A DNA stretch of 11,064 nucleotides from a virus. The position numbers and the translations under genes were made by a program. Shown here piece by piece: positions 1,414 through 11,064 of the stretch. Where the stretch lies: UHGV virus genome UHGV-1652352. One strand, given 5' to 3'. Each line of letters starts with the position of its first letter. Within the stretch, counting starts at the first letter, position 1. The notes beneath the pieces are model-generated. The model searched no databases, was not told where the DNA came from, and saw nothing but the letters and a program-made list of their open reading frames with translations.

Positions 1414-1707
1414 TCAGTCATTACTGATAGCGCCATAGCGTGATCGATAATTACGCAGGCGCGGGTCAATTTCAGGGAAGTGGGTATATGTGGCTTTGCG
1501 GAACGGTCGGATTGATGTCTGGTAAATTCGCTCGCGTTCTTCTTTCTCTGCAAGCCATATACAATGACGAAATTCCTTTTCCTCTTTCGTTTCCTGCGGT
1601 AGCGACATTATCAGGTCATAGTTTTTTCTGAATTTATCCAGCACCTCCGATACGGAATTGCCGGAACAGCGGCGCGGGTCATCCGCACCATACTGAGGCG
1701 CTGGCAT
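1414..1707 (-). CDS. hypothetical protein (97 aa)
   Basis: Track ORF 1414..1707. ATG at 1707 is preceded by AGGAG with a 6-nt spacer, immediately after the SSB stop. Confidence 0.55.
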
Positions 1708-1720
1708 GATTTTCTCCTGA

Positions 1721-2227
1721 TTAAATTGCGTGAATAGCGTGACGAGGGAAGGGGAGAGTTACTGGTGCAAAGGGTATATCGTCGTCAAAATCCATCGGAG
1801 GTTCGTTGTGTTGTGCTGGTGATGATTGCTGCTGTGGCTTCTGTGATTGCCTGCTGGCTGCTTGTTGTTTGCTGTCGCCAATGCCGCCAAGCATCTGCAT
1901 CACGCCATTAATTCCGACATGAACCTCGGTTGTGTAACGGTCTTGCCCTGACTGGTCTTTCCACTTTCTGGTTCTCAGCATTCCCTCGAAATAAATCTGA
2001 TCACCTTTTTTCACATACTGCCCCACGACCTCAGCCAGTTTCCCGGATACAGCAACACGATGCCATTCAGTCAATTCCTTTTGCTCGCCAGTATTTTTAT
2101 CTCGCCATTGTTCTGACGTGGCTATTGTCAGGTTAGCGAACGCTGTTCCTGATGGTGAGTATCGAACTTCCGGGTCTTGTCCTACCCGACCAAGGATAAT
2201 CACCTTATTTACGCCTCTGCTTGCCAT
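1721..2227 (-). CDS. ssb: single-stranded DNA-binding protein with a C-terminal extension past the DDDIPF tip
   Basis: Track ORF 1721..2227. N-terminus [23 protein letters not shown] and the ...TEWHRV..., ...[11 protein letters not shown]... blocks match the SSB OB-fold. The acidic tail [10 protein letters not shown] is present but followed by 15 more residues ([15 protein letters not shown]) before TAA. Confidence 0.9.
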
Positions 2228-2935
2228 TTATGCCGCCTGTTTTAGTTCGTTAACTCTGATGTTCATTATCTGAACGCATTTAGCCTGCGCCTCCTCGTTG
2301 CCAGCCATTAATTGCCAGTCACGCTGATAACGCTCGATGAGTTTTTTCTTGTCAGTTTCTGTTGACGCATAATCGCTGAAGTCTTTCAGGATTTGTTCGC
2401 AGTCAACCGATGGAGATTTCTGGTTGGTATTTTCTGGTGATGGTTTGTTATCTGATGCTGGGATTGCCCATCCCGGAAGCGATGGAGGGAGCCAGTAAAA
2501 TCCTGTTCCATCCTTCAGTTTTGCCCTGTGCCACCCCTGCTTTTTATCGAGAGATGTTTGTGCGAAACCTTCCTCAAGGTTATACAGATACCGACCGATT
2601 CCCCACTGAACGGCAGCGCGCTTCATTGCACCGGAACGACCACCTTTGACGGCTTCTACCTGCGTGTTTTCAGCAGCATCCCATTTGGTTACCCATTCGG
2701 AATCAATCTTTATTGATATGCCGCATTCAACGCCGCCGTTGTTGGGAATATCGCGGTATTCATTGCGCCATCCTGCTTTGCCGCAAACATCGTCCAGGCG
2801 TTTCATGATTGCCCGGTTCGTGACATAAGCCAGCACCATAGCCCACACCTTGCCATCGCGTGTTTTACCGCTTTGCTGTATTCGCCATTCGATATCTTCA
2901 GGGCTGAATGGCTCATCGAATTTGTTCAAATCCAT
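2228..2935 (-). CDS. single-strand annealing protein, Rad52/Sak- or Erf-like recombinase (235 aa)
   Basis: Track ORF 2228..2935. SD GAGGTG 5 nt before the ATG. Sits directly upstream of ssb (stop and start adjacent, TAAATG), the usual annealing-protein + SSB arrangement. Family assignment is from recollection, not a search. Confidence 0.7.
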   Translation of the reverse strand: MDLNKFDEPFSPEDIEWRIQQSGKTRDGKVWAMVLAYVTNRAIMKRLDDVCGKAGWRNEYRDIPNNGGVECGISIKIDSEWVTKWDAAENTQVEAVKGGRSGAMKRAAVQWGIGRYLYNLEEGFAQTSLDKKQGWHRAKLKDGTGFYWLPPSLPGWAIPASDNKPSPENTNQKSPSVDCEQILKDFSDYASTETDKKKLIERYQRDWQLMAGNEEAQAKCVQIMNIRVNELKQAA

Positions 2936-4214: not shown

Positions 4215-4487
4215 TTACCTCGCTGTCAGTTGTTTTGATTTCCGGTATCCTGCCGCGTAAAGAGCTACGTTTGGCAGGCAAATACTTCCACTGCGTTCAT
4301 CTTCTTCCTTACAGCGAAGGCTTCCGAGTGATGCTGCTTTATCTGCTCTGACGCAACCAGAGAGCTTTAGCGCAATTTTTCGCGCCAGTGCTTCATTACT
4401 GCGTCGCTCGGCAATAAGTTCTGCTCTGCGAGCTTTGTAGCGGCTTTTTGCCGTACCTTTGGATTCTTTCCAGACAATGGTTACCAT
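4215..4487 (-). CDS. N: antitermination protein N-like (P22 gp24-like, 90 aa)
   Basis: Within track ORF 4215..4517; start ATG 4487..4485 with AAGGAG and 6-nt spacer. Arginine-rich N-terminal motif (GTAKSRYKARRAELIAERR) and a C-terminus LPNVALYAAGYRKSKQLTAR that matches my recollection of P22 gp24. Lies downstream of a nut site and candidate pL. Confidence 0.75.
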   Translation of the reverse strand: MVTIVWKESKGTAKSRYKARRAELIAERRSNEALARKIALKLSGCVRADKAASLGSLRCKEEDERSGSICLPNVALYAAGYRKSKQLTAR

Positions 4488-4597
4488 GATGGTCTCCTTT
4501 AAGTGGCTTTGGCGCATGACGCGTCGAGGTGCTTATCTTCTCGATCGCTGTCTTGCAGCTGCAATTCGCGCCATCCCCAAAACCACTCAAGTTCTGG

Positions 4598-4638
4598 TCT
4601 CAACGGTTAGGTTGAGAGTCCGTCGATGTTAAAGAGCC
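4598..4638 (-). promoter_or_regulatory. nutL: nutL-like site (boxA + boxB hairpin)
   Basis: Minus strand reads GGCTCTTTAACA (boxA-like, RC of 4627..4638), 9-nt spacer, then hairpin TCTCAAC-CTAACC-GTTGAGA (4598..4617). Same architecture and same CUAACC loop as the nutR candidate. Confidence 0.6.
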
Positions 4639-4685
4639 TGCCAATCTGTTCCTTGTGGCGTCTCAGCGTCCTGCTGATGGAAATG

Positions 4686-4747
4686 ATAGTCACATATTGT
4701 GATTTAATGGTCAATCACAAAATGTGTAAAATAAAGGTGTGACACGT
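4686..4747 (-). promoter_or_regulatory. candidate pL promoter(s) with oL operator palindromes
   Basis: Operator-like palindromes TCACA-TAT-TGTGA (4690..4702) and TCACA-AAA-TGTGT (4715..4727), plus a GTGTGACACG element (4737..4746). Two candidate leftward sigma-70 promoters overlap them: TTTACA (RC 4725..4730), 17 nt, TTAAAT (RC 4702..4707); or TTGACC (RC 4709..4714), 17 nt, GACTAT. Confidence 0.5.
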
Positions 4748-4963
4748 TATGTGTATGATTTTTTTGTGTAAATAGTTTTACCCGCGATGGTTTTGCTTAC
4801 TTAAGTCGGTGGCAACAGCAGGATGGGTGCTGAAAAGTTCGAAAAACGAGCGAAGGGGGGGTGGCGAGATGGCGGGATATGGGAGTTGTATTAAGAATTA
4901 TAGTAATTTAATCAATAGTTTGGACCGGCGGGCAGGTGCTGTCCTGATAGTGATCGGCGGGCA

Positions 4964-4990
4964 ATAAAAAACCCGGCTCGGTGGCCGGGT
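4964..4990 (-). terminator. intrinsic terminator ending the cI-side cassette
   Basis: Minus strand: stop of the 310-aa gene (4999..4997), then hairpin CCCGGC-CACCGA-GCCGGG (RC of 4972..4989), then TTTTTTATT. Textbook stem plus U-tract. Confidence 0.65.
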
Positions 4991-4996
4991 GAGATA

Positions 4997-5929
4997 TTAA
5001 AGAACCGATTTAACAAGATGGTTTTTACGGTACAGACCTATGCGATCATTGTGAATCTCAGTAGTCTCCACTAAAAGAGAAACAATCTGTCCGACCTTGT
5101 GTTTTTTTTGTATTAAATCTAGCATTTCAATCGGATAGGAAGCCTTTAAATGTTCACCACCAACATCAAGCTCCAGCTTCCCATATTTGGATAGAACGAC
5201 CAGTTCGCCTGTAACCGTTTCAGTAATGGGAGGGGATGAAATGGTTGATGTAAGTCTACTCACCAAGTACTTAATTTTATTGGAGTCAATAGTTGCCACC
5301 TTGGTGCCATTACTAAATGGACCGGTCCAACTTGCATCAAATGTTAAGTTGTGTTTATCGCATTCCTCTACGATTCTCTTAAGGCTTACAGTGGAATTGT
5401 ATCCAATTTCAGCGACGTGATTCATGAAGTTGTTGTCGTCATCGCTTAACAACAAATCGAATATGCCTTTTACAGCCTTGCTGGGTACTGTTTCTACTAA
5501 TTCTGCTATTCCTGTAGAGAAGGTGACGCCCAATTTTGTAGACCCAGGGGATAAATCAGCCAGCCTGAGGTTTAAGGAGCTTTTCACGTCGTAGGGAACT
5601 TTTTTTGAGTCCTTGCCTGAGGCAATTTTGTGTGTTGCTCTTTGTATTAGCGCTGCAAGATTTGTTGAAATAGCCCCAAGCAGCTCTAAAGGAATAGAGC
5701 CAAAGTCAACCTCAGAGCCTTTCAGCCGCAGCTCAAAAAAATCGATAAGTGGGTGCCGACTATCTTGCTTTAATTTTTCGGCCTTCAAATCGCTCAGATG
5801 AGAATCCATGGAGCGATAAAGAAGCATGTCAGCAAAGGACCTGGTTTTGTTTTGCTTCATTGCATCGACTTCTTTTTGAATGAAATCAATGCGTTTATCG
5901 CAATTTTTAAACATTGATTTATCATTCAT
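4997..5929 (-). CDS. hypothetical protein (310 aa), partner of the nucleotidyltransferase-like gene; candidate effector
   Basis: Track ORF 4997..5929. ATG 5929..5927 overlaps the TGA of the upstream gene (ATGA), with GAGGA 7 nt upstream. AT-rich by eye. No Walker motif, transmembrane segment or other motif I can recognise. Confidence 0.8.
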   Translation of the reverse strand: MNDKSMFKNCDKRIDFIQKEVDAMKQNKTRSFADMLLYRSMDSHLSDLKAEKLKQDSRHPLIDFFELRLKGSEVDFGSIPLELLGAISTNLAALIQRATHKIASGKDSKKVPYDVKSSLNLRLADLSPGSTKLGVTFSTGIAELVETVPSKAVKGIFDLLLSDDDNNFMNHVAEIGYNSTVSLKRIVEECDKHNLTFDASWTGPFSNGTKVATIDSNKIKYLVSRLTSTISSPPITETVTGELVVLSKYGKLELDVGGEHLKASYPIEMLDLIQKKHKVGQIVSLLVETTEIHNDRIGLYRKNHLVKSVL

Positions 5930-6405
5930 AAAAAAATCCTCACTAACCCTTTCGGGTTTTCACTGCGATCAAAACCAAACCAACCGCGCCAGTAGCTACG
6001 CCAGTACTCATAATCATAGTTAGGGTCATCTAAATTCTTCATGAGTAGTAGGACATCAATTTTGTAGTTTTGTTTGATGTAGTTTCGGTCAAGCAAATTA
6101 TCGACGCGGCCCCGAAGCATGACAGGTATTGAGTTTATATTGCTATAGTCACATACCAACAAAATATCAATATCATCAGGCTCTGGTTTAGACGTGGTGT
6201 ATGAACCATCAACCCATATTTCTGTAAAACAGCCATATTGAGCAGATAATTCTCGAATAGATTCGAGTAGCTGTATAAAATTACAGTATAGCATGCCTCG
6301 CCTGGATGATGAAGGAAAGCAATCGACACAATACGATTTTAATCCAGCTTCATCCATGTCATGGAACCCTGGCTCAAACAGGGGTGGGTAATTAATTTTA
6401 TCCAT
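5926..6405 (-). CDS. minimal nucleotidyltransferase (Pol-beta fold, MNT-like) domain protein (159 aa)
   Basis: Track ORF 5926..6405. AAGG about 6 nt upstream of ATG 6405. Carries the NTase signature h-G-S-x(9-13)-D-h-D-h: VDGSYTTSKPEPDDIDILLV, close to the GSxARG...SDxDLLV pattern of MNT-type enzymes. Confidence 0.8.
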   Translation of the reverse strand: MDKINYPPLFEPGFHDMDEAGLKSYCVDCFPSSSRRGMLYCNFIQLLESIRELSAQYGCFTEIWVDGSYTTSKPEPDDIDILLVCDYSNINSIPVMLRGRVDNLLDRNYIKQNYKIDVLLLMKNLDDPNYDYEYWRSYWRGWFGFDRSENPKGLVRIFL

Positions 6406-6440
6406 AAAAAACCTTGCTATACATTTGTTTTTTTATTAAA

Positions 6441-6468
6441 AATCTAACCACCGAAATGGTGACGGCAA
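6441..6468 (-). promoter_or_regulatory. candidate promoter for the two-gene cassette
   Basis: In the 148-bp AT-rich gap between cI and the NTase-like gene, minus strand reads TTGCCG (RC 6463..6468), 16 nt, TAGATT (RC 6441..6446), about 40 nt upstream of the ATG. A weak match, by eye only. Confidence 0.25.
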
Positions 6469-6553
6469 GATGTTACATGGGGTTACAATCAGCCAATACA
6501 CCGCATTAAATAATTTTTTCACCAGCTATGCGCCGACCAGAACACCTTGCCCA

Positions 6554-7201
6554 TCACCCAAACGTCTCTTCAGGCCACTGCGCCTTAACTACCTTGCCTA
6601 TGATGCGGCAGCTATGGTCGCAATCCAGGGTTCTATATGCCGGGTTTAAAGGTACCAGGTAACTAACCCCTGCATCCTTCTCATACTTCTTGAACGTTGC
6701 CTCTGAATCACCATTTGCAGAAGCCACGCAGAAATCCCCAGACTCTACCGGCTCAGCCGGATCAACGAGTATCAGCATGCCTTCCGGAAAACTTGGACGA
6801 ACCCCCTGAGGCGCCGTCATTGAATGCCCCTTCACCTCAAGCCAGAAAGCTTTTTCGCTGGCTTTTGTGGTCGTTGGGACCCATGCCTTTGCATCGCTGG
6901 CTGTGTAGCTTCCCACCTCCGAAAATGGCCCGGCCTGCACTGAAGAAAATAACGGGTATTCATATTGGCGAAATACGGCGTCTGAATCCTCGCCAAACAT
7001 TATTTTTGCCGGAGATACGCCGAGTGCCGCCCCAAGAACCAGCGCGTCATCCGCGCTAACCTTTCTTGTTCCTAACTCGTAGTTCCCCAGGCGTGAAGGC
7101 GCAGCCCAGCCGCAAAGCTTGGCCAATTGAGCCTGGCTAAGTCCTTTAGCTTCTCTAAGGGACTTGATCCTTTCCCCGATAATTTCATGCATCGTTTTCA
7201 T
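6554..7201 (-). CDS. cI: CI-type prophage repressor (HTH-XRE + S24 LexA-like peptidase domain)
   Basis: Track ORF 6554..7201. N-terminal HTH ([24 protein letters not shown]), Ala-Gly cleavage site (VQAGPF), Ser-Lys dyad (GHSM ... FKKYEKD). Divergent from cro across an operator region. The start could instead be the ATG at 7192. Confidence 0.9.
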
Positions 7202-7309
7202 CCCTTAAATGTAACACGCAACGTGATTGAACTCTGTACACGAATTGAGGTTGACTGTTAATCACAAATTGTGTGTAATGGGTGTGTGATTAATACTAGG
7301 GAGACCGCA
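7202..7309. promoter_or_regulatory. oR operator region with pR and probable pRM
   Basis: Candidate pR on plus strand: TTGACT (7251..7256), 17 nt, TGTAAT (7274..7279). Operator-like palindromes ACACG-CAA-CGTGA (7214..7226) and TCACA-AAT-TGTGT (7262..7274), plus a TGTGA half-site (7286..7290); same family as oL. pRM not pinned down. Confidence 0.6.
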
Positions 7310-7528
7310 ATGAACAAAATTGCCCAGCAGCGAAAAAAAATCGGAGTTTCGCAAGCTGTACTAGCTTCGGCAATTGGTTGGGGGCAATCCCGCATCGCCA
7401 ACTATGAGCTGAATATCCGTACTCCTGGCCTTAACGATTGCCGAATGATCGTAGAAGGCCTCAGGAAGTTAGGGTGCCAATGTTCTTTGGATGATGTTTT
7501 CCCTCCATCCAGTAACAAAGCCGCCTAA
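7310..7528 (+). CDS. cro: Cro-type repressor (HTH-XRE, 72 aa)
   Basis: ATG 7310 preceded by AGGGAG (6-nt spacer), inside track ORF 7271..7528. HTH (VSQAVLASAIGWGQSRIANYELN) resembles the cI HTH. First gene downstream of pR. Confidence 0.8.
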   Translation: MNKIAQQRKKIGVSQAVLASAIGWGQSRIANYELNIRTPGLNDCRMIVEGLRKLGCQCSLDDVFPPSSNKAA

Positions 7529-7536
7529 GCAGTACC

Positions 7537-7577
7537 CGCTCTTTAACAGTCATGGCCTTTCACCTCTAACCGGGTGA
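7537..7577 (+). promoter_or_regulatory. nutR: nutR-like site (boxA + boxB hairpin)
   Basis: boxA CGCTCTTTAACA (7537..7548), 11-nt spacer, hairpin TCACCT-CTAACC-GGGTGA (7560..7577; one G-U pair). Loop identical to the nutL candidate. Confidence 0.65.
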
Positions 7578-7645
7578 GCAAACATCAGCGGCAAATCCAT
7601 TGGGTGTGCCGCTATAACTCAATATCAATATAGGAAAATTAACAA

Positions 7646-7942
7646 ATGACACAAGCAAGTTACAGCAAGCCAACACAGCGAGAAATTGATCGCGCTGAAA
7701 CTGATTTACTCATCAACCTGTCAACGCTTACCCAGCGCGGTCTGGCAAAGATGATTGGCTGTCATGAATCGAAGATAAGCAGAACGGACTGGAGATTTAT
7801 TGCTTCGGTCTTGTGTGCTTTCGGAATGGCATCAGACATCAGTCCGATTAGCAGGGCTTTTAAGTATGCGCTTGATGAAATCACAAAGAAAAAATCCCCG
7901 GCTGCCACCGAGGATTTTAAGCAAATTGATATGCAATTCTGA
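7646..7942 (+). CDS. cII: CII-like transcriptional activator (98 aa)
   Basis: Track ORF 7646..7942. C-terminus [18 protein letters not shown] parallels lambda CII (KKRPAATERSEQIQMEF); HTH-like block [12 protein letters not shown]. Position after cro and nutR. Confidence 0.85.
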
Positions 7943-7974
7943 GGGAATTACTGGATCAATCCACAGGAGTAATT

Positions 7975-8121
7975 ATGACAAAACAACTCAGTCCTTACCA
8001 GGACAAAATTCACAAACACATACTACGTGATCGCTTCCTGTCCAGCTTCAAGCAGCCTGGTCGATTCCGGTCTGAGTTGGAAAAAGTGAAGCTGATGCAG
8101 AAGGAGAAAGGTCATGAGTAA
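7975..8121 (+). CDS. small hypothetical ORF (48 aa) between cII and O
   Basis: ATG 7975 preceded by AGGAG with a 5-nt spacer. Stop TAA 8119..8121 overlaps the start of O by 8 nt. Product [48 protein letters not shown]. Confidence 0.4.
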
Positions 8122-8974
8122 TATTGCAACCGTAACACATTTAAGGCCTTCACAACGGCCTGTGGAGCGTCGTGTGGCAGAAGTTGAAGATGGTTATACC
8201 CGTCTTGCAAATGCCCTGTATGAAGAGCTTATCGGCGCAGATTTAACGAAAAATCAGAGCAAGGTTGCCCACGCCATATGCCGTAAAACATACGGCTACG
8301 GTAAAAAGATGGATCGCATCTCTGATAGTCAGTTAGCTCAAATTACCAGGCTGCCAAGACAGAAGGTAAACAAGGCCAAGAATGAGCTTATCGCGATGAA
8401 GGTTATCCTTCGCGAAGGCCAGCAAATCGGGCCTAACAAGAACATCGAGGAATGGCAAATCGAAGGGTGTCACTACTCTGGTGATAATGTCACTGCATTG
8501 GTGACAAAAAGTGTCACCAAAACGGTGACAGCGCTGTCACCAAAACAGGGACACACAAAAGAAACTATTACAAAAGAAAAAAGAAATAATAAAAACACTA
8601 TGTCCGAAAGTGTTCGGACGGAGTGTGAAAAATCACCTGACCGTCACGAAGAAACCGACAAGGCATTCGAGGAAATATTCTGGTGTGCAGGCATGCGGAA
8701 AGCCGGGAAGAAAAACGCAGCTTCGGCATTCAGAACACAGTTCAGGGAATGGCGTAAAACTACCAGGGGTACGGCAAGCGAGTTTGCCACGATGCTGGCA
8801 GAAGACATCGCATGCAGGAATGGTAAGCAGTTCGGATTCGACAGGTTGTTACCATCGAGCTACCTGAACGGTCAGCGCTGGAACGACGAGAAGCCAGAAA
8901 CCATTCAACCACAATCCAAACCATCATCCGCAATCACCGTATCGAAAACTGGCTACGTGTTTTTCGACAGGTGA
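8114..8974 (+). CDS. O: replication initiator O-like protein (lambda O N-terminal domain, divergent C-terminal domain)
   Basis: Track ORF 8114..8974, AAGGAG SD. N-terminal blocks [50 protein letters not shown] and PNKNIEEW match my recollection of lambda O. The C-terminal third does not resemble the lambda O P-binding domain. Confidence 0.85.
8467..8619. repeat. candidate origin inside O: iterons, AT-rich tract, palindrome
   Basis: Palindromic iterons GGTGACA-N-TGTCACC at 8500..8518 and 8524..8541, with degenerate copies at 8467..8494. Then an A-rich tract (8553..8600), then 7-bp-arm palindrome GTCCGAA-AGTG-TTCGGAC (8602..8619). Same layout as ori-lambda in the middle of O. Confidence 0.6.
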
Positions 8975-8977
8975 ACC

Positions 8978-9085
8978 ATGAAATCAAAAATCAAATCGCT
9001 ACTGGTCGCTGGTTATAACCACGGCTGGTTAAGTATTTCGTTTGTCGATTTCTGGTTTAAAAATCTCAATCTGAGGGAATCATGA
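8978..9085 (+). CDS. small hypothetical ORF (35 aa), translationally coupled to primase-helicase
   Basis: ATG 8978 with AGGTG 4 nt upstream; stop TGA 9083..9085 overlaps the primase-helicase ATG (ATGA). Product MKSKIKSLLVAGYNHGWLSISFVDFWFKNLNLRES. Confidence 0.3.
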   Translation: MKSKIKSLLVAGYNHGWLSISFVDFWFKNLNLRES

Positions 9086-10962
9086 CGCCAAGTGAACTCA
9101 GTGACCTGCTTTGGGCGCAGGTTGACAGGGTGGCTCCGCACCTGTTGCCAAACGGCAAGAAAGAGGGGCATGAGTGGGTTGCCGGTAACGTCAACGGTGA
9201 CAAGGGAAACAGCCTTAAGGTCAACCTTAGCGGCAAGAAAAAATGGGCTGATTTCGCTGAGGGAGACGGCGGTGACATGCTTGATTTGTGGATGGCATGT
9301 CGTGGAATTAACCTGCATCAGGCTATGCAGGAAGCGAAAGCCTTTCTCGGAATCAAGGATGACGATCACCATTTCGATGCCAAACGTGAGAAGAAATTCT
9401 CCAGACCTGACCGCAAGAAAATCGCCCGCTACGTTACCAGAACAGAATCCCATCTTGAGTACCTGCAATCGCGTGGCATATCGCCAGAAGTCGTAAAGCG
9501 CTACGAGGTTGTCAGCGGCAAGGTGTGGAATGGAGAACGGGAACTGGATGCTCTGGTGATTCCGTACAAACGCGATGGTGAGTTGTTGCAGGTCAAGCGA
9601 ATCAGCACTGAGCGCCCGGACGGGAAGAAAGTCATTATGGCAGAAGGTGATTGCGAACCTTGTCTGTTCGGATGGCAGGCTCTGGACGCTGGCGTGAGGG
9701 CGGTTGTACTTTGCGAAGGCGAAATTGATTGTATGAGCTATGCGCAATATGGCATCTCGGCGTTATCCGTGCCGTTTGGTGGCGGGAAAGGCGCTAAACA
9801 GCAGTGGATTGAGTTTGAGTATCACAACCTCGACAGGTTTGAGGAAATATTCATCTCGATGGACGTTGATGATGTTGGTCGTGAAGCCGCAAGGGAAATC
9901 GCAAGCCGACTCGGTGAACATCGTTGCCGTCTTGTTACTCTGCCGTACAAAGACATCAACGAATGCCTGATGAACGGTGTTACCGAGGATGAAATCTGGC
10001 AGTACATCGGCACGGCATCCTACTTCGATCCTGAAGAACTCTACAGTGCGCGAGAGTTTTACCAGGACACTATCAACGCTTTCTACGGCAAGCAGCAGTA
10101 TCTGTTTAATCCACTGTGGGAATCTCTGGCAGATAAATTCCAGTTCCGTGAGGCAGAGTTGACGCTGGTCAATGGTGTGAACGGTCACGGAAAAACGGAG
10201 GTTGTAGGGCATATGGCACTTGAGGCAATGCGTCAGGGTGTGAAGACGTGCATCGCGTCACTTGAGCTGAAGCCAGGCATTCTCCTTAAGCGACTTACCC
10301 GTCAGGCGACGTGCTGCAAGATGCCGCCAGTGCTGGAAATTGACTCTGCATTTAAATTTTATGACGAAAGACTTTGGGTGTTTGGCCTGACCGGAACGGC
10401 GAAAGCCGACAGGCTGATCGAAATATTCGACTACGCTCGCCGCCGATACGGCATCCAGTTATTCATCATCGACAGCCTGATGAAATGTGGCATAGGCGAC
10501 GATGACTATAACGGGCAGAAGGCGTTTGTTGACTCGATTTGCGATTTCAAAAACAAAACAAACTCCCACGTCATTCTCGTTACTCACTCGCGAAAAGGTG
10601 ACAGCGAAGAAAAACCAACCGGGAAAATGGACGTAAAAGGATCTGGAGCGATAACAGACCTGACAGACAACCTTTTCATCATCTGGCGTAACAAGGCTCG
10701 CGAGAGAGCGTTACAGAGAGTTCAGAGTGGTGAAAAGATGTCAGAGAAGGACGAACAGCTACTGGCATCTCCGGCATCTGTTTTGATGCTTGAAAAGCAA
10801 CGTAACGGCGAAGGTTGGGAAGGTGGTGTCCCGTTGTTCCTTGACGAGCAATCGCACCAGTTCCTGCAACTTGAATCAGGATCGCCTTATAGCTACATCG
10901 CCAATATGCCGAAATCGGAATATGACGAGGCGTGGCGACAGGAAAACGTGACGGAGTATTAA
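9082..10962 (+). CDS. bifunctional DNA primase / replicative helicase (toprim + DnaB/T7-gp4-like helicase, 626 aa)
   Basis: Track ORF 9082..10962. Toprim motifs (VVLCEGEIDCMSY ... ISMDVDDVGREAA). Walker A GVNGHGKT and Walker B LFIIDSLMK in the C-terminal half. Occupies the position of lambda P. Confidence 0.85.
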   Translation: MTPSELSDLLWAQVDRVAPHLLPNGKKEGHEWVAGNVNGDKGNSLKVNLSGKKKWADFAEGDGGDMLDLWMACRGINLHQAMQEAKAFLGIKDDDHHFDAKREKKFSRPDRKKIARYVTRTESHLEYLQSRGISPEVVKRYEVVSGKVWNGERELDALVIPYKRDGELLQVKRISTERPDGKKVIMAEGDCEPCLFGWQALDAGVRAVVLCEGEIDCMSYAQYGISALSVPFGGGKGAKQQWIEFEYHNLDRFEEIFISMDVDDVGREAAREIASRLGEHRCRLVTLPYKDINECLMNGVTEDEIWQYIGTASYFDPEELYSAREFYQDTINAFYGKQQYLFNPLWESLADKFQFREAELTLVNGVNGHGKTEVVGHMALEAMRQGVKTCIASLELKPGILLKRLTRQATCCKMPPVLEIDSAFKFYDERLWVFGLTGTAKADRLIEIFDYARRRYGIQLFIIDSLMKCGIGDDDYNGQKAFVDSICDFKNKTNSHVILVTHSRKGDSEEKPTGKMDVKGSGAITDLTDNLFIIWRNKARERALQRVQSGEKMSEKDEQLLASPASVLMLEKQRNGEGWEGGVPLFLDEQSHQFLQLESGSPYSYIANMPKSEYDEAWRQENVTEY

Positions 10963-10991
10963 ATGACCATCTACATCACTGAGCTTGTAAC

Positions 10992-11023
10992 AGGCCTGCT
11001 GGTAATCGCAGGCCTTTTTATTT
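10992..11023 (+). terminator. tR2-like intrinsic terminator
   Basis: 8-bp stem AGGCCTGC / GCAGGCCT with loop TGGTAATC (10992..11015), then TTTTTATTT (11016..11023). Sits between the replication gene and ninB, as tR2 does in lambda. Confidence 0.65.
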
Positions 11024-11039
11024 GGGGGAGAGGGAAGTC

Positions 11040-11064
11040 ATGAAAAAACTAACCTTTGAAATTC
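11040..11064 (+). CDS. ninB: NinB-like protein, first 8 codons only (runs off the window end)
   Basis: ATG 11040 preceded by GGGAAG; the product begins MKKLTFEI, matching the lambda NinB N-terminus as I recall it. Confidence 0.5.

Follow-up and report, generated by a model that had tools for sequence, protein, structure and literature searches.

The 11,064-nt stretch of the virus genome UHGV-1652352 analysed here (hereafter the window) comes from a temperate lambdoid phage and covers its immunity and early region. Directly behind the gene of its cI-type prophage repressor (positions 6554-7201, minus strand; matches to Peptidase_S24 with E = 3.1e-26 and to the helix-turn-helix (HTH) families HTH_31/HTH_3), two genes lie on the same strand, gene A (5926-6405, 159 aa) and gene B (4997-5929, 310 aa), which together form the cassette under study. 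In agreement with the initial annotation of this DNA, the two genes share an ATGA: bases 5926-5929 belong to both open reading frames, the TGA stop codon of A overlapping the ATG start codon of B, which suggests translational coupling. Protein A is a predicted minimal Pol-beta-type nucleotidyltransferase (NTase) of Pfam family DUF6932 and protein B is its soluble partner; the two match the PADLOC models PDC-M63A and PDC-M63B, respectively. Escherichia phage mEpX1 is 99.3% identical to window bases 4296-7985, and in its records both cassette genes are labelled 'hypothetical protein' and the repressor is labelled cI.

The cI-A-B unit is closed by an intrinsic terminator on the minus strand (4971-4990), located before the pL/oL region as had been proposed. 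Its hairpin has a 7-bp stem with six GC pairs, followed by UUUUUU, and its predicted folding energy (dG -14.9 kcal/mol, z = -3.5) was matched by none of 200 shuffled sequences. The spacer between cI and A (6406-6553, minus strand) measures exactly 148 bp and is AT-rich (38.5% GC), its cI-proximal end consisting of a linker conserved among lambdoid phages. The cassette had also been described as more AT-rich than its flanks, and computation bore this out: its GC content is 40.2%, compared with 52.5% for cI and 47.8% for the window outside the cassette, and is below that of all 1409-bp windows outside it (lowest, 42.7%). A promoter of its own, suspected in the initial annotation, found no support. 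No site in the 148-bp gap matched at 9 or more of 12 positions, the best reaching 8 of 12 (TTGCCG-16-TAGATT), and no conserved promoter was found upstream of 14 homologous cassettes, which makes co-transcription with cI more likely. A weak hairpin in the gap (6447-6466) was not significant (z = -1.7), and an Rfam scan of the window found no RNA family.

Both proteins fall into a family that has already been catalogued. Searched with the models of PADLOC v2.0.0, a version that may predate the Hailong system, A matched PDC-M63A (PDLC04744) with E = 1.8e-41, residues 1-158 aligning with profile positions 1-148 of 152, and B matched PDC-M63B (PDLC04749) with E = 7.5e-45, residues 23-304 aligning with positions 20-300 of 309. 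The two genes are adjacent on the same strand with a 4-bp overlap, and PDC-M63B models were matched by 132 of 132 diverse relatives of B. The view that the pairing corresponds to no nameable defence system therefore has to be given up in the face of these full-length matches. PDC systems are cassettes found embedded in BREX, DISARM or type I restriction-modification (RM) loci and then filtered, of which 145 candidates were released; PDC-M63 is cassette CAS_00189 (count, 45), a computational candidate predicted by 'guilt-by-embedding' (Payne et al., bioRxiv 10.1101/2024.01.29.577857). We consider the identity of the family as PDC-M63AB and its conserved pairing to be practically certain, and by sequence comparison the cassette is a member of a catalogued but uncharacterised candidate family. 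To the catalogue entry the present analysis adds the repeated association with repressor genes, the OB (oligonucleotide/oligosaccharide-binding) fold of B, an invariant serine in a loop of B, a domain common to PDC-M32A and PDC-M02B, and the boundaries of a mobile block. According to file 8 of the supplement to the catalogue, the family FAM_00167, which contains PDC-M63A, also occurs in the cassette FAM_00167>>FAM_01519 (count, 269), which was marked 'Reject' (bioRxiv 10.1101/2024.01.29.577857). This second cassette is the more frequent one, and NTase relatives may also pair with a different second gene.

The treatment of A and B as one unit agrees well with their distribution. A was followed by B in 8 of 8 close enterobacterial genomic loci, each with a 4-bp overlap, and in 7 of 7 loci of distant A homologues from metagenomes and genomes (34-43% identity), where the partner matched by hidden Markov model (HMM) at 1e-30 to 1e-44. 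Among the viral loci from IMG/VR, which were collected with the A alignment, the same order was found in 79 of 80, the remaining locus being cut by a contig end, and the overlap is exactly 4 bp in 64 of the 79. No third conserved gene was seen beside the pair in the loci examined. In E. coli, one allele is present in 18 and another in 98 of the 5426 complete genomes, and all copies are chromosomal. Two independent natural insertion sequence (IS) disruptions were observed: in E. coli KL53 (locus L104, 3930-5470), ISVsa5 truncates the 5' end of A and B is intact, and in E. coli OkiPb01716 (locus L105, 1298-3961), an IS3 element is inserted precisely between the intact genes A and B.

At least 56 of 77 viral loci have an HTH or HTH plus S24 repressor gene directly upstream of the pair on the same strand. 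Clustering by sequence divides these repressors into at least seven unrelated groups, and they include those of pairs whose A is only 32-36% identical to A of the window, and an upstream same-strand repressor is also present in loci L005-L009 and L017. Other surroundings are more varied. The pair stands at the edge of tail/baseplate modules in two loci (L003 and L004), shares a chromosomal island with a type I RM system and YoeB/YefM (L012), adjoins a NACHT/nSTAND3 protein (L020) or a DUF4011 helicase (L013), and is found beside imuB-dnaE2 (L010); a distant pair is located in the early region of a mobile genetic element with genes for an orphan methylase, a Lar-like protein and RadC (L014). 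Some of these neighbourhoods would suit a role other than defence, in which the cassette serves counter-defence or is a life-cycle accessory, for instance one that favours induction, recombination or replication by modifying proteins or nucleic acids of host or phage. The distant pair in the early region and the pairs beside imuB-dnaE2 or tail genes speak for such a role, and a RuvA/SSB-like OB fold, as predicted for B, would fit DNA metabolism. However, members of the family are also found outside phages, in plain chromosomal islands, placement on a repressor transcript would mean expression while the lytic genes are off, and the distribution in E. coli is patchy, as would be expected of accessory conflict genes. 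We thus consider a non-defence role very improbable.

The position of the cassette is equivalent to that of rexA-rexB in phage lambda, as the initial annotation had held. A stretch of 38 nt over the cI stop codon (window 6523-6560) is ~95% identical to lambda 37196-37233, the cI/rexA junction, and the geometry is similar, lambda having a 112-bp gap followed by two genes, with a GC content of 40.9% in rexAB and 45.2% in cI. The same stretch is also found with ~95% identity at the 3' end of cI in 434, HK544, HK639, SfI and others. It is conserved although the repressors and the downstream cargo differ, and from these alignments it is probably a recombination linker that permits module swaps. In phage VT1-Sakai, matching flanks surround a different gene, and the record describes the element homologous to the terminator as a 'putative rho-independent terminator for pRM transcript'. 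In a prophage of E. coli G3/10 (L002), positions 5957-7583 are 99.6% identical to window 4953-6578, and the sequences on both sides are unrelated. This block, which comprises the cI 3' linker, the spacer, A, B and the terminator, sits there behind an unrelated S24 repressor, for which phmmer gave no match to the cI of the window. Because the same flanks hold other cargo and the same block stands behind a different repressor, the cassette is an exchangeable module of the repressor operon. Together with its low GC content, the reappearance of the block behind another repressor indicates mobility, and the cassette is a discrete, horizontally exchanged unit in the rexAB-equivalent slot.

At the left end of the block there is a direct repeat, with GACCGGCGGGCA at 4923-4934 and GATCGGCGGGCA at 4952-4963, the second copy of which coincides with the block boundary at 4953. 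The slot holds a gene for a 183-aa protein in VT1-Sakai (L102; 1600-2151, minus strand) and an overlapping pair of genes for 135-aa and 216-aa proteins in Lambdavirus PDP110P1 (L103; 4234-4641 and 3596-4246, both minus strand). None of these slot proteins had a significant Pfam or PADLOC match, and the slot between repressor and terminator looks like a reservoir of uncharacterised cassettes.

The initial annotation had described the cassette as an NTase with a partner of no known family, and both halves of this description hold. A matches Pfam DUF6932 (PF22014) with 87.3 bits, well above the gathering cut-off of 27, and has the alpha/beta core fold of the Pol-beta NTase superfamily, together with its G[GS] motif, a DxD motif on the strand that follows and one further acidic residue. 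Among 43 relatives with identities down to ~35%, G67-S68, D78xD80, G13, F30, R36, R136-SYWRG, F143 and E149 are invariant, and D117, W142 and G144-F145 are at least 90% conserved. The AlphaFold model of A is very confident (pLDDT, the predicted local distance difference test score, of 96), and the structures nearest to the predicted fold are minimal nucleotidyltransferase (MNT) antitoxins; the matches include 7ae2, 8xeh and 5yep, which we take to be HEPN-MNT structures. As GS, DxD and the third Asp are retained in such a fold, A is predicted to be a catalytically intact, divergent minimal NTase of the Pol-beta type. The protein is soluble (hydropathy maximum, 1.25) and acidic, with an isoelectric point (pI) of 4.7. 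A literature search for DUF6932, PF22014, the WP accessions, the PHROG identifiers and the accessions of the mEpX1 re-sequencing found no characterisation. A 132-aa fragment, P0095, from a 569-bp ENA contig carries precomputed CYTH (PF01928) and DUF6932 matches and is weakly similar to A (E = 7e-4); it could be a CYTH-DUF6932 fusion.

For B, neither Pfam nor NCBIfam gave a family, and nothing meaningful emerged from Pfam across the 132 relatives of B or from searches of PDB sequence profiles with three B alignments. A weak match to SAVED (E = 0.88) and a match of 35 residues to a streptococcal surface protein (E = 0.006) were treated as chance. An exhaustive profile search with B yielded 270 cluster representatives, nearly all of 300-325 aa, and this near-uniform length suggests that B represents a widespread family of a single architecture. 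The model of B (pLDDT 81) begins with a helical hairpin, continues with two alpha/beta regions and ends in a beta-barrel, and this C-terminal domain has a predicted OB fold resembling those of RuvA and SSB (single-stranded DNA-binding protein). Foldseek returned nothing significant for B outside the OB fold. On the strength of the model, the OB fold probably binds nucleic acid. B is soluble (hydropathy maximum, 1.38), without a hydrophobic segment and without a transmembrane or known effector domain.

In the alignment of 132 B sequences (median identity ~23%), S130 is the sole invariant residue. Near-invariant positions include G129, G77, P80, L81, G176 and W201, as well as position 63, which is E in most relatives and D in the protein of the window, and position 212, which is W in most relatives and A in the window; R68 and R122 are ~84% conserved. 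G129-S130 lies at the end of the loop with the lowest confidence in the model (123-129). We also considered B as a second NTase on account of a 'GS...D' pattern and rejected this possibility, since the enterobacterial clade does not retain the acidic positions (A142 and V145 in the protein of the window) and the fold does not match. When the Gly-Ser-loop region alone was searched against 5.8 billion proteins, two fragments were the only matches. With PADLOC models, the Gly-Ser-loop domain (residues 62-146) matched PDC-M32A in 22 of the 132 relatives (best E = 7e-8) and, more weakly, PDC-M02B in 5 of the 132. These profile matches suggest that the Gly-Ser-loop domain is common to several candidate systems, PDC-M63, PDC-M32 and PDC-M02.

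The cassette was then compared with known systems. At the sequence level it does not differ from PDC-M63, a prophage copy of which had already been noted in E. coli NILS69. With lambda RexAB it shares the location on the strand of cI, between this gene and oL/pL, the two-gene layout, the low GC content, the terminator and the cI 3' linker. However, RexB spans the membrane several times and reaches a hydropathy maximum of 2.39, and the hydropathy maxima of A and B are those of soluble proteins. Homology of A or B to RexA or RexB was rejected, since all blastp and HMM matches had E > 0.1, which accords with the earlier remark that neither protein resembles them. AbiE and MenAT are two-gene modules with a Pol-beta-fold NTase that are linked to abortive infection. 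The cassette differs from them in size, gene order and partner, and neither A nor B has a DUF1814/AbiEii match in Pfam or an AbiE match in PADLOC.

NTase-fold toxins are known from abortive-infection and toxin-antitoxin (TA) systems, and A might accordingly be a toxin of the AbiE/MenT kind that nucleotidylylates a nucleic-acid 3' end, for instance the tRNA acceptor stem, with B as its antitoxin or as an OB-fold subunit for substrate recognition. The OB fold of B could indeed present tRNA or single-stranded DNA ends, and one of the natural IS insertions truncates A specifically, a common fate of toxins. Yet A lacks the DUF1814/AbiEii signature, is acidic and has half the size of AbiE/MenT-type toxins. 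Moreover, the IS3 element between A and B uncouples B, leaves A intact and is nevertheless tolerated, which is hard to square with B as an essential antitoxin. A toxic A is thus, in our judgement, quite improbable.

The combination of an NTase with a protein that may bind its product through an OB fold recalls Hailong (HalAB) and CBASS (the cyclic-oligonucleotide-based antiphage signalling system). In a scheme of this type, A would synthesise a nucleotide or short oligonucleotide signal that B binds through its OB fold, being switched on or off, and infection would alter the level of the product. CD-NTases and OAS-type enzymes, however, carry a helical substrate-binding domain, and A, with its 159 aa, is devoid of one. 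A has neither CD-NTase features nor a CBASS match, PADLOC gave no match to CBASS or to another signalling system, and B has no recognised killing domain. Nor does B have a transmembrane or known effector domain; in particular, the membrane-channel effector of Hailong is not found here, B having no hydrophobic segment, and the comparison included no Hailong HMM. The scheme also leaves the invariant serine of the flexible loop unexplained, and we regard it as improbable.

In the HEPN-MNT (HepT-MntA) systems, which are type VII TA modules, a minimal NTase that is encoded first and overlaps its partner AMPylates and thereby silences this partner. The cassette resembles them in that an MNT-like minimal NTase is encoded upstream of its partner. 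It differs in the partner, which in HEPN-MNT is an all-alpha HEPN RNase, B being a 310-aa protein with alpha/beta regions and an OB fold and without the Rx4-6H motif of HEPN; the residues of B conserved throughout the family are G, S, W, R and P, and not Rx4-6H. No consistent HEPN Pfam match was obtained for B and its 132 relatives, two different models each hitting one member (E of 0.005 and 0.016). In addition, Pfam places A in a different family, DUF6932, whose N and C termini carry additional conserved motifs. Since HEPN-MNT, RexAB, AbiE/MenAT, CBASS and Hailong each fail to agree in at least one defining feature, the cassette stands outside the characterised families, and its mode of action may, by analogy, resemble that of a type VII TA or abortive-infection pair.

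Based on these comparisons, we propose that PDC-M63AB is an exclusion or abortive-infection module that is expressed from the lysogen and works in a manner akin to HEPN-MNT, a reading by analogy that we judge to have an even chance of being right. The cassette would be an exchangeable 'moron' of the prophage, occupying the slot next to the repressor that rexAB fills in lambda. In the lysogen, it would most likely form the last part of the transcript that reads from pRM through cI and halts at the terminator at 4971-4990. In lambda, rexA and rexB share the pRM transcript with cI in the lysogen. The repressor upstream on the same strand, the failure to find an independent promoter and the strong terminator, which is annotated for pRM in VT1-Sakai, make expression from the lysogen likely. 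A and B would be produced in coupled amounts, and A would nucleotidylylate B, the probable acceptor being the invariant Ser130 in the flexible Gly-Ser loop. The modification would keep B inactive. Infection by another phage would upset the balance between A and B, and the released B would use its OB fold to engage nucleic acid of the phage or the host, so that phage development would be blocked by exclusion or abortive infection. The modification step derives from the intact NTase motifs, the MNT-like fold, the overlapping genes with the NTase first, and the location of S130 by a low-pLDDT loop with the conserved R68 and R122; by its analogy to HEPN-MNT it is a tentative idea, and modification of B on Ser130 in particular is doubtful. 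Still less likely, we believe, is a mechanistically new system, in which a minimal NTase would modify an invariant Ser of an undescribed family of OB-fold effectors, possibly with a short chain, and so gate its binding to phage replication or recombination intermediates, and which would have been recruited to the repressor transcripts of many immunity types as a RexAB-like guard.

As to an anti-phage role, the association of the family with defence rests on its definition by embedding in BREX, DISARM and type I RM loci and on the loci beside YoeB/YefM with type I RM, NACHT/nSTAND3 and the DUF4011 helicase. Another study found protection by 4 of 8 PDC/HEC candidates that had been chosen at random, which gives a rough base rate. 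Two observations weigh against the proposal. Deletion of a prophage-borne PDC-M63AB from E. coli NILS69 left infection by 10 virulent double-stranded DNA phages unchanged (PMC12409345), and this is the sole functional test of PDC-M63AB that we found in the literature. The two tolerated IS insertions with intact B, moreover, argue against a strongly toxic unguarded B or A, although polarity makes this argument a weak one. The lysogen-expressed defence or abortive-infection role put forward in the initial annotation is the most economical reading of the context, given the strong association with repressor genes and the loci beside type I RM, TA and NACHT genes. Since PDC-M63 was only predicted from embedding, the NILS69 deletion was negative and a separate promoter is unsupported, such a role is something we infer, and we consider it about equally probable to be true or false.

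The same observations can be read in terms of a pure addiction or stabilisation TA module, which would aid the persistence of the prophage or island without anti-phage benefit. Two overlapping genes for an enzyme and its partner resemble a type VII TA pair, the module has spread on mobile elements, and no defence phenotype was seen in NILS69. On the other hand, a position behind the repressor in many immunity types is the classic place of exclusion genes expressed in the lysogen, the pair also lies within or beside RM and NACHT loci, and the IS disruptions are tolerated. We hold pure addiction to be quite improbable as well, and retain exclusion or abortive infection as the preferred reading.

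The remainder of the window has the layout of a lambdoid phage. On the minus strand, the order of genes is Ead/Ea22, Abc2, SSB, Rad52-type recombinase, cIII, N (4215-4517, profile match), the cassette and cI, and an oL-like palindrome (4691-4726) lies ~245 bp beyond the terminator. The early-left operon (1414-2935, minus strand) encodes a P22-type Abc2 (anti-RecBCD), SSB and a recombinase of the Rad52/22 family, and not lambda Gam/Bet/Exo. On the plus strand, cro, cII and O are followed by a Toprim/DnaB-type primase-helicase. The homology to mEpX1 ends at 7985, and the replication genes beyond it (7986-11064) are different ones: mEpX1 has O and DnaC, and in their place the window carries genes for another O protein (8114-8974) and for a primase-helicase of 626 aa with Toprim and DnaB-like parts (9082-10962). 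This indicates that the replication module is mosaic.

RexAB is the oldest known abortive-infection system. Here, a pair of an NTase and an OB-fold protein has been placed repeatedly behind at least seven unrelated repressor families, and it also occurs in bacterial defence islands. The existence and the position of such a cassette would not surprise a specialist, and the family is a good experimental target; as mEpX1 infects E. coli K-12, the cassette is experimentally accessible. If it gives no protection, the case would call for caution about 'guilt-by-position' predictions. If lysogens are protected, PDC-M63AB would represent a new type of effector, might put protein nucleotidylylation to a new use in immunity, and would provide a handle on PDC-M32 and PDC-M02, the related candidates with the Gly-Ser-loop domain.

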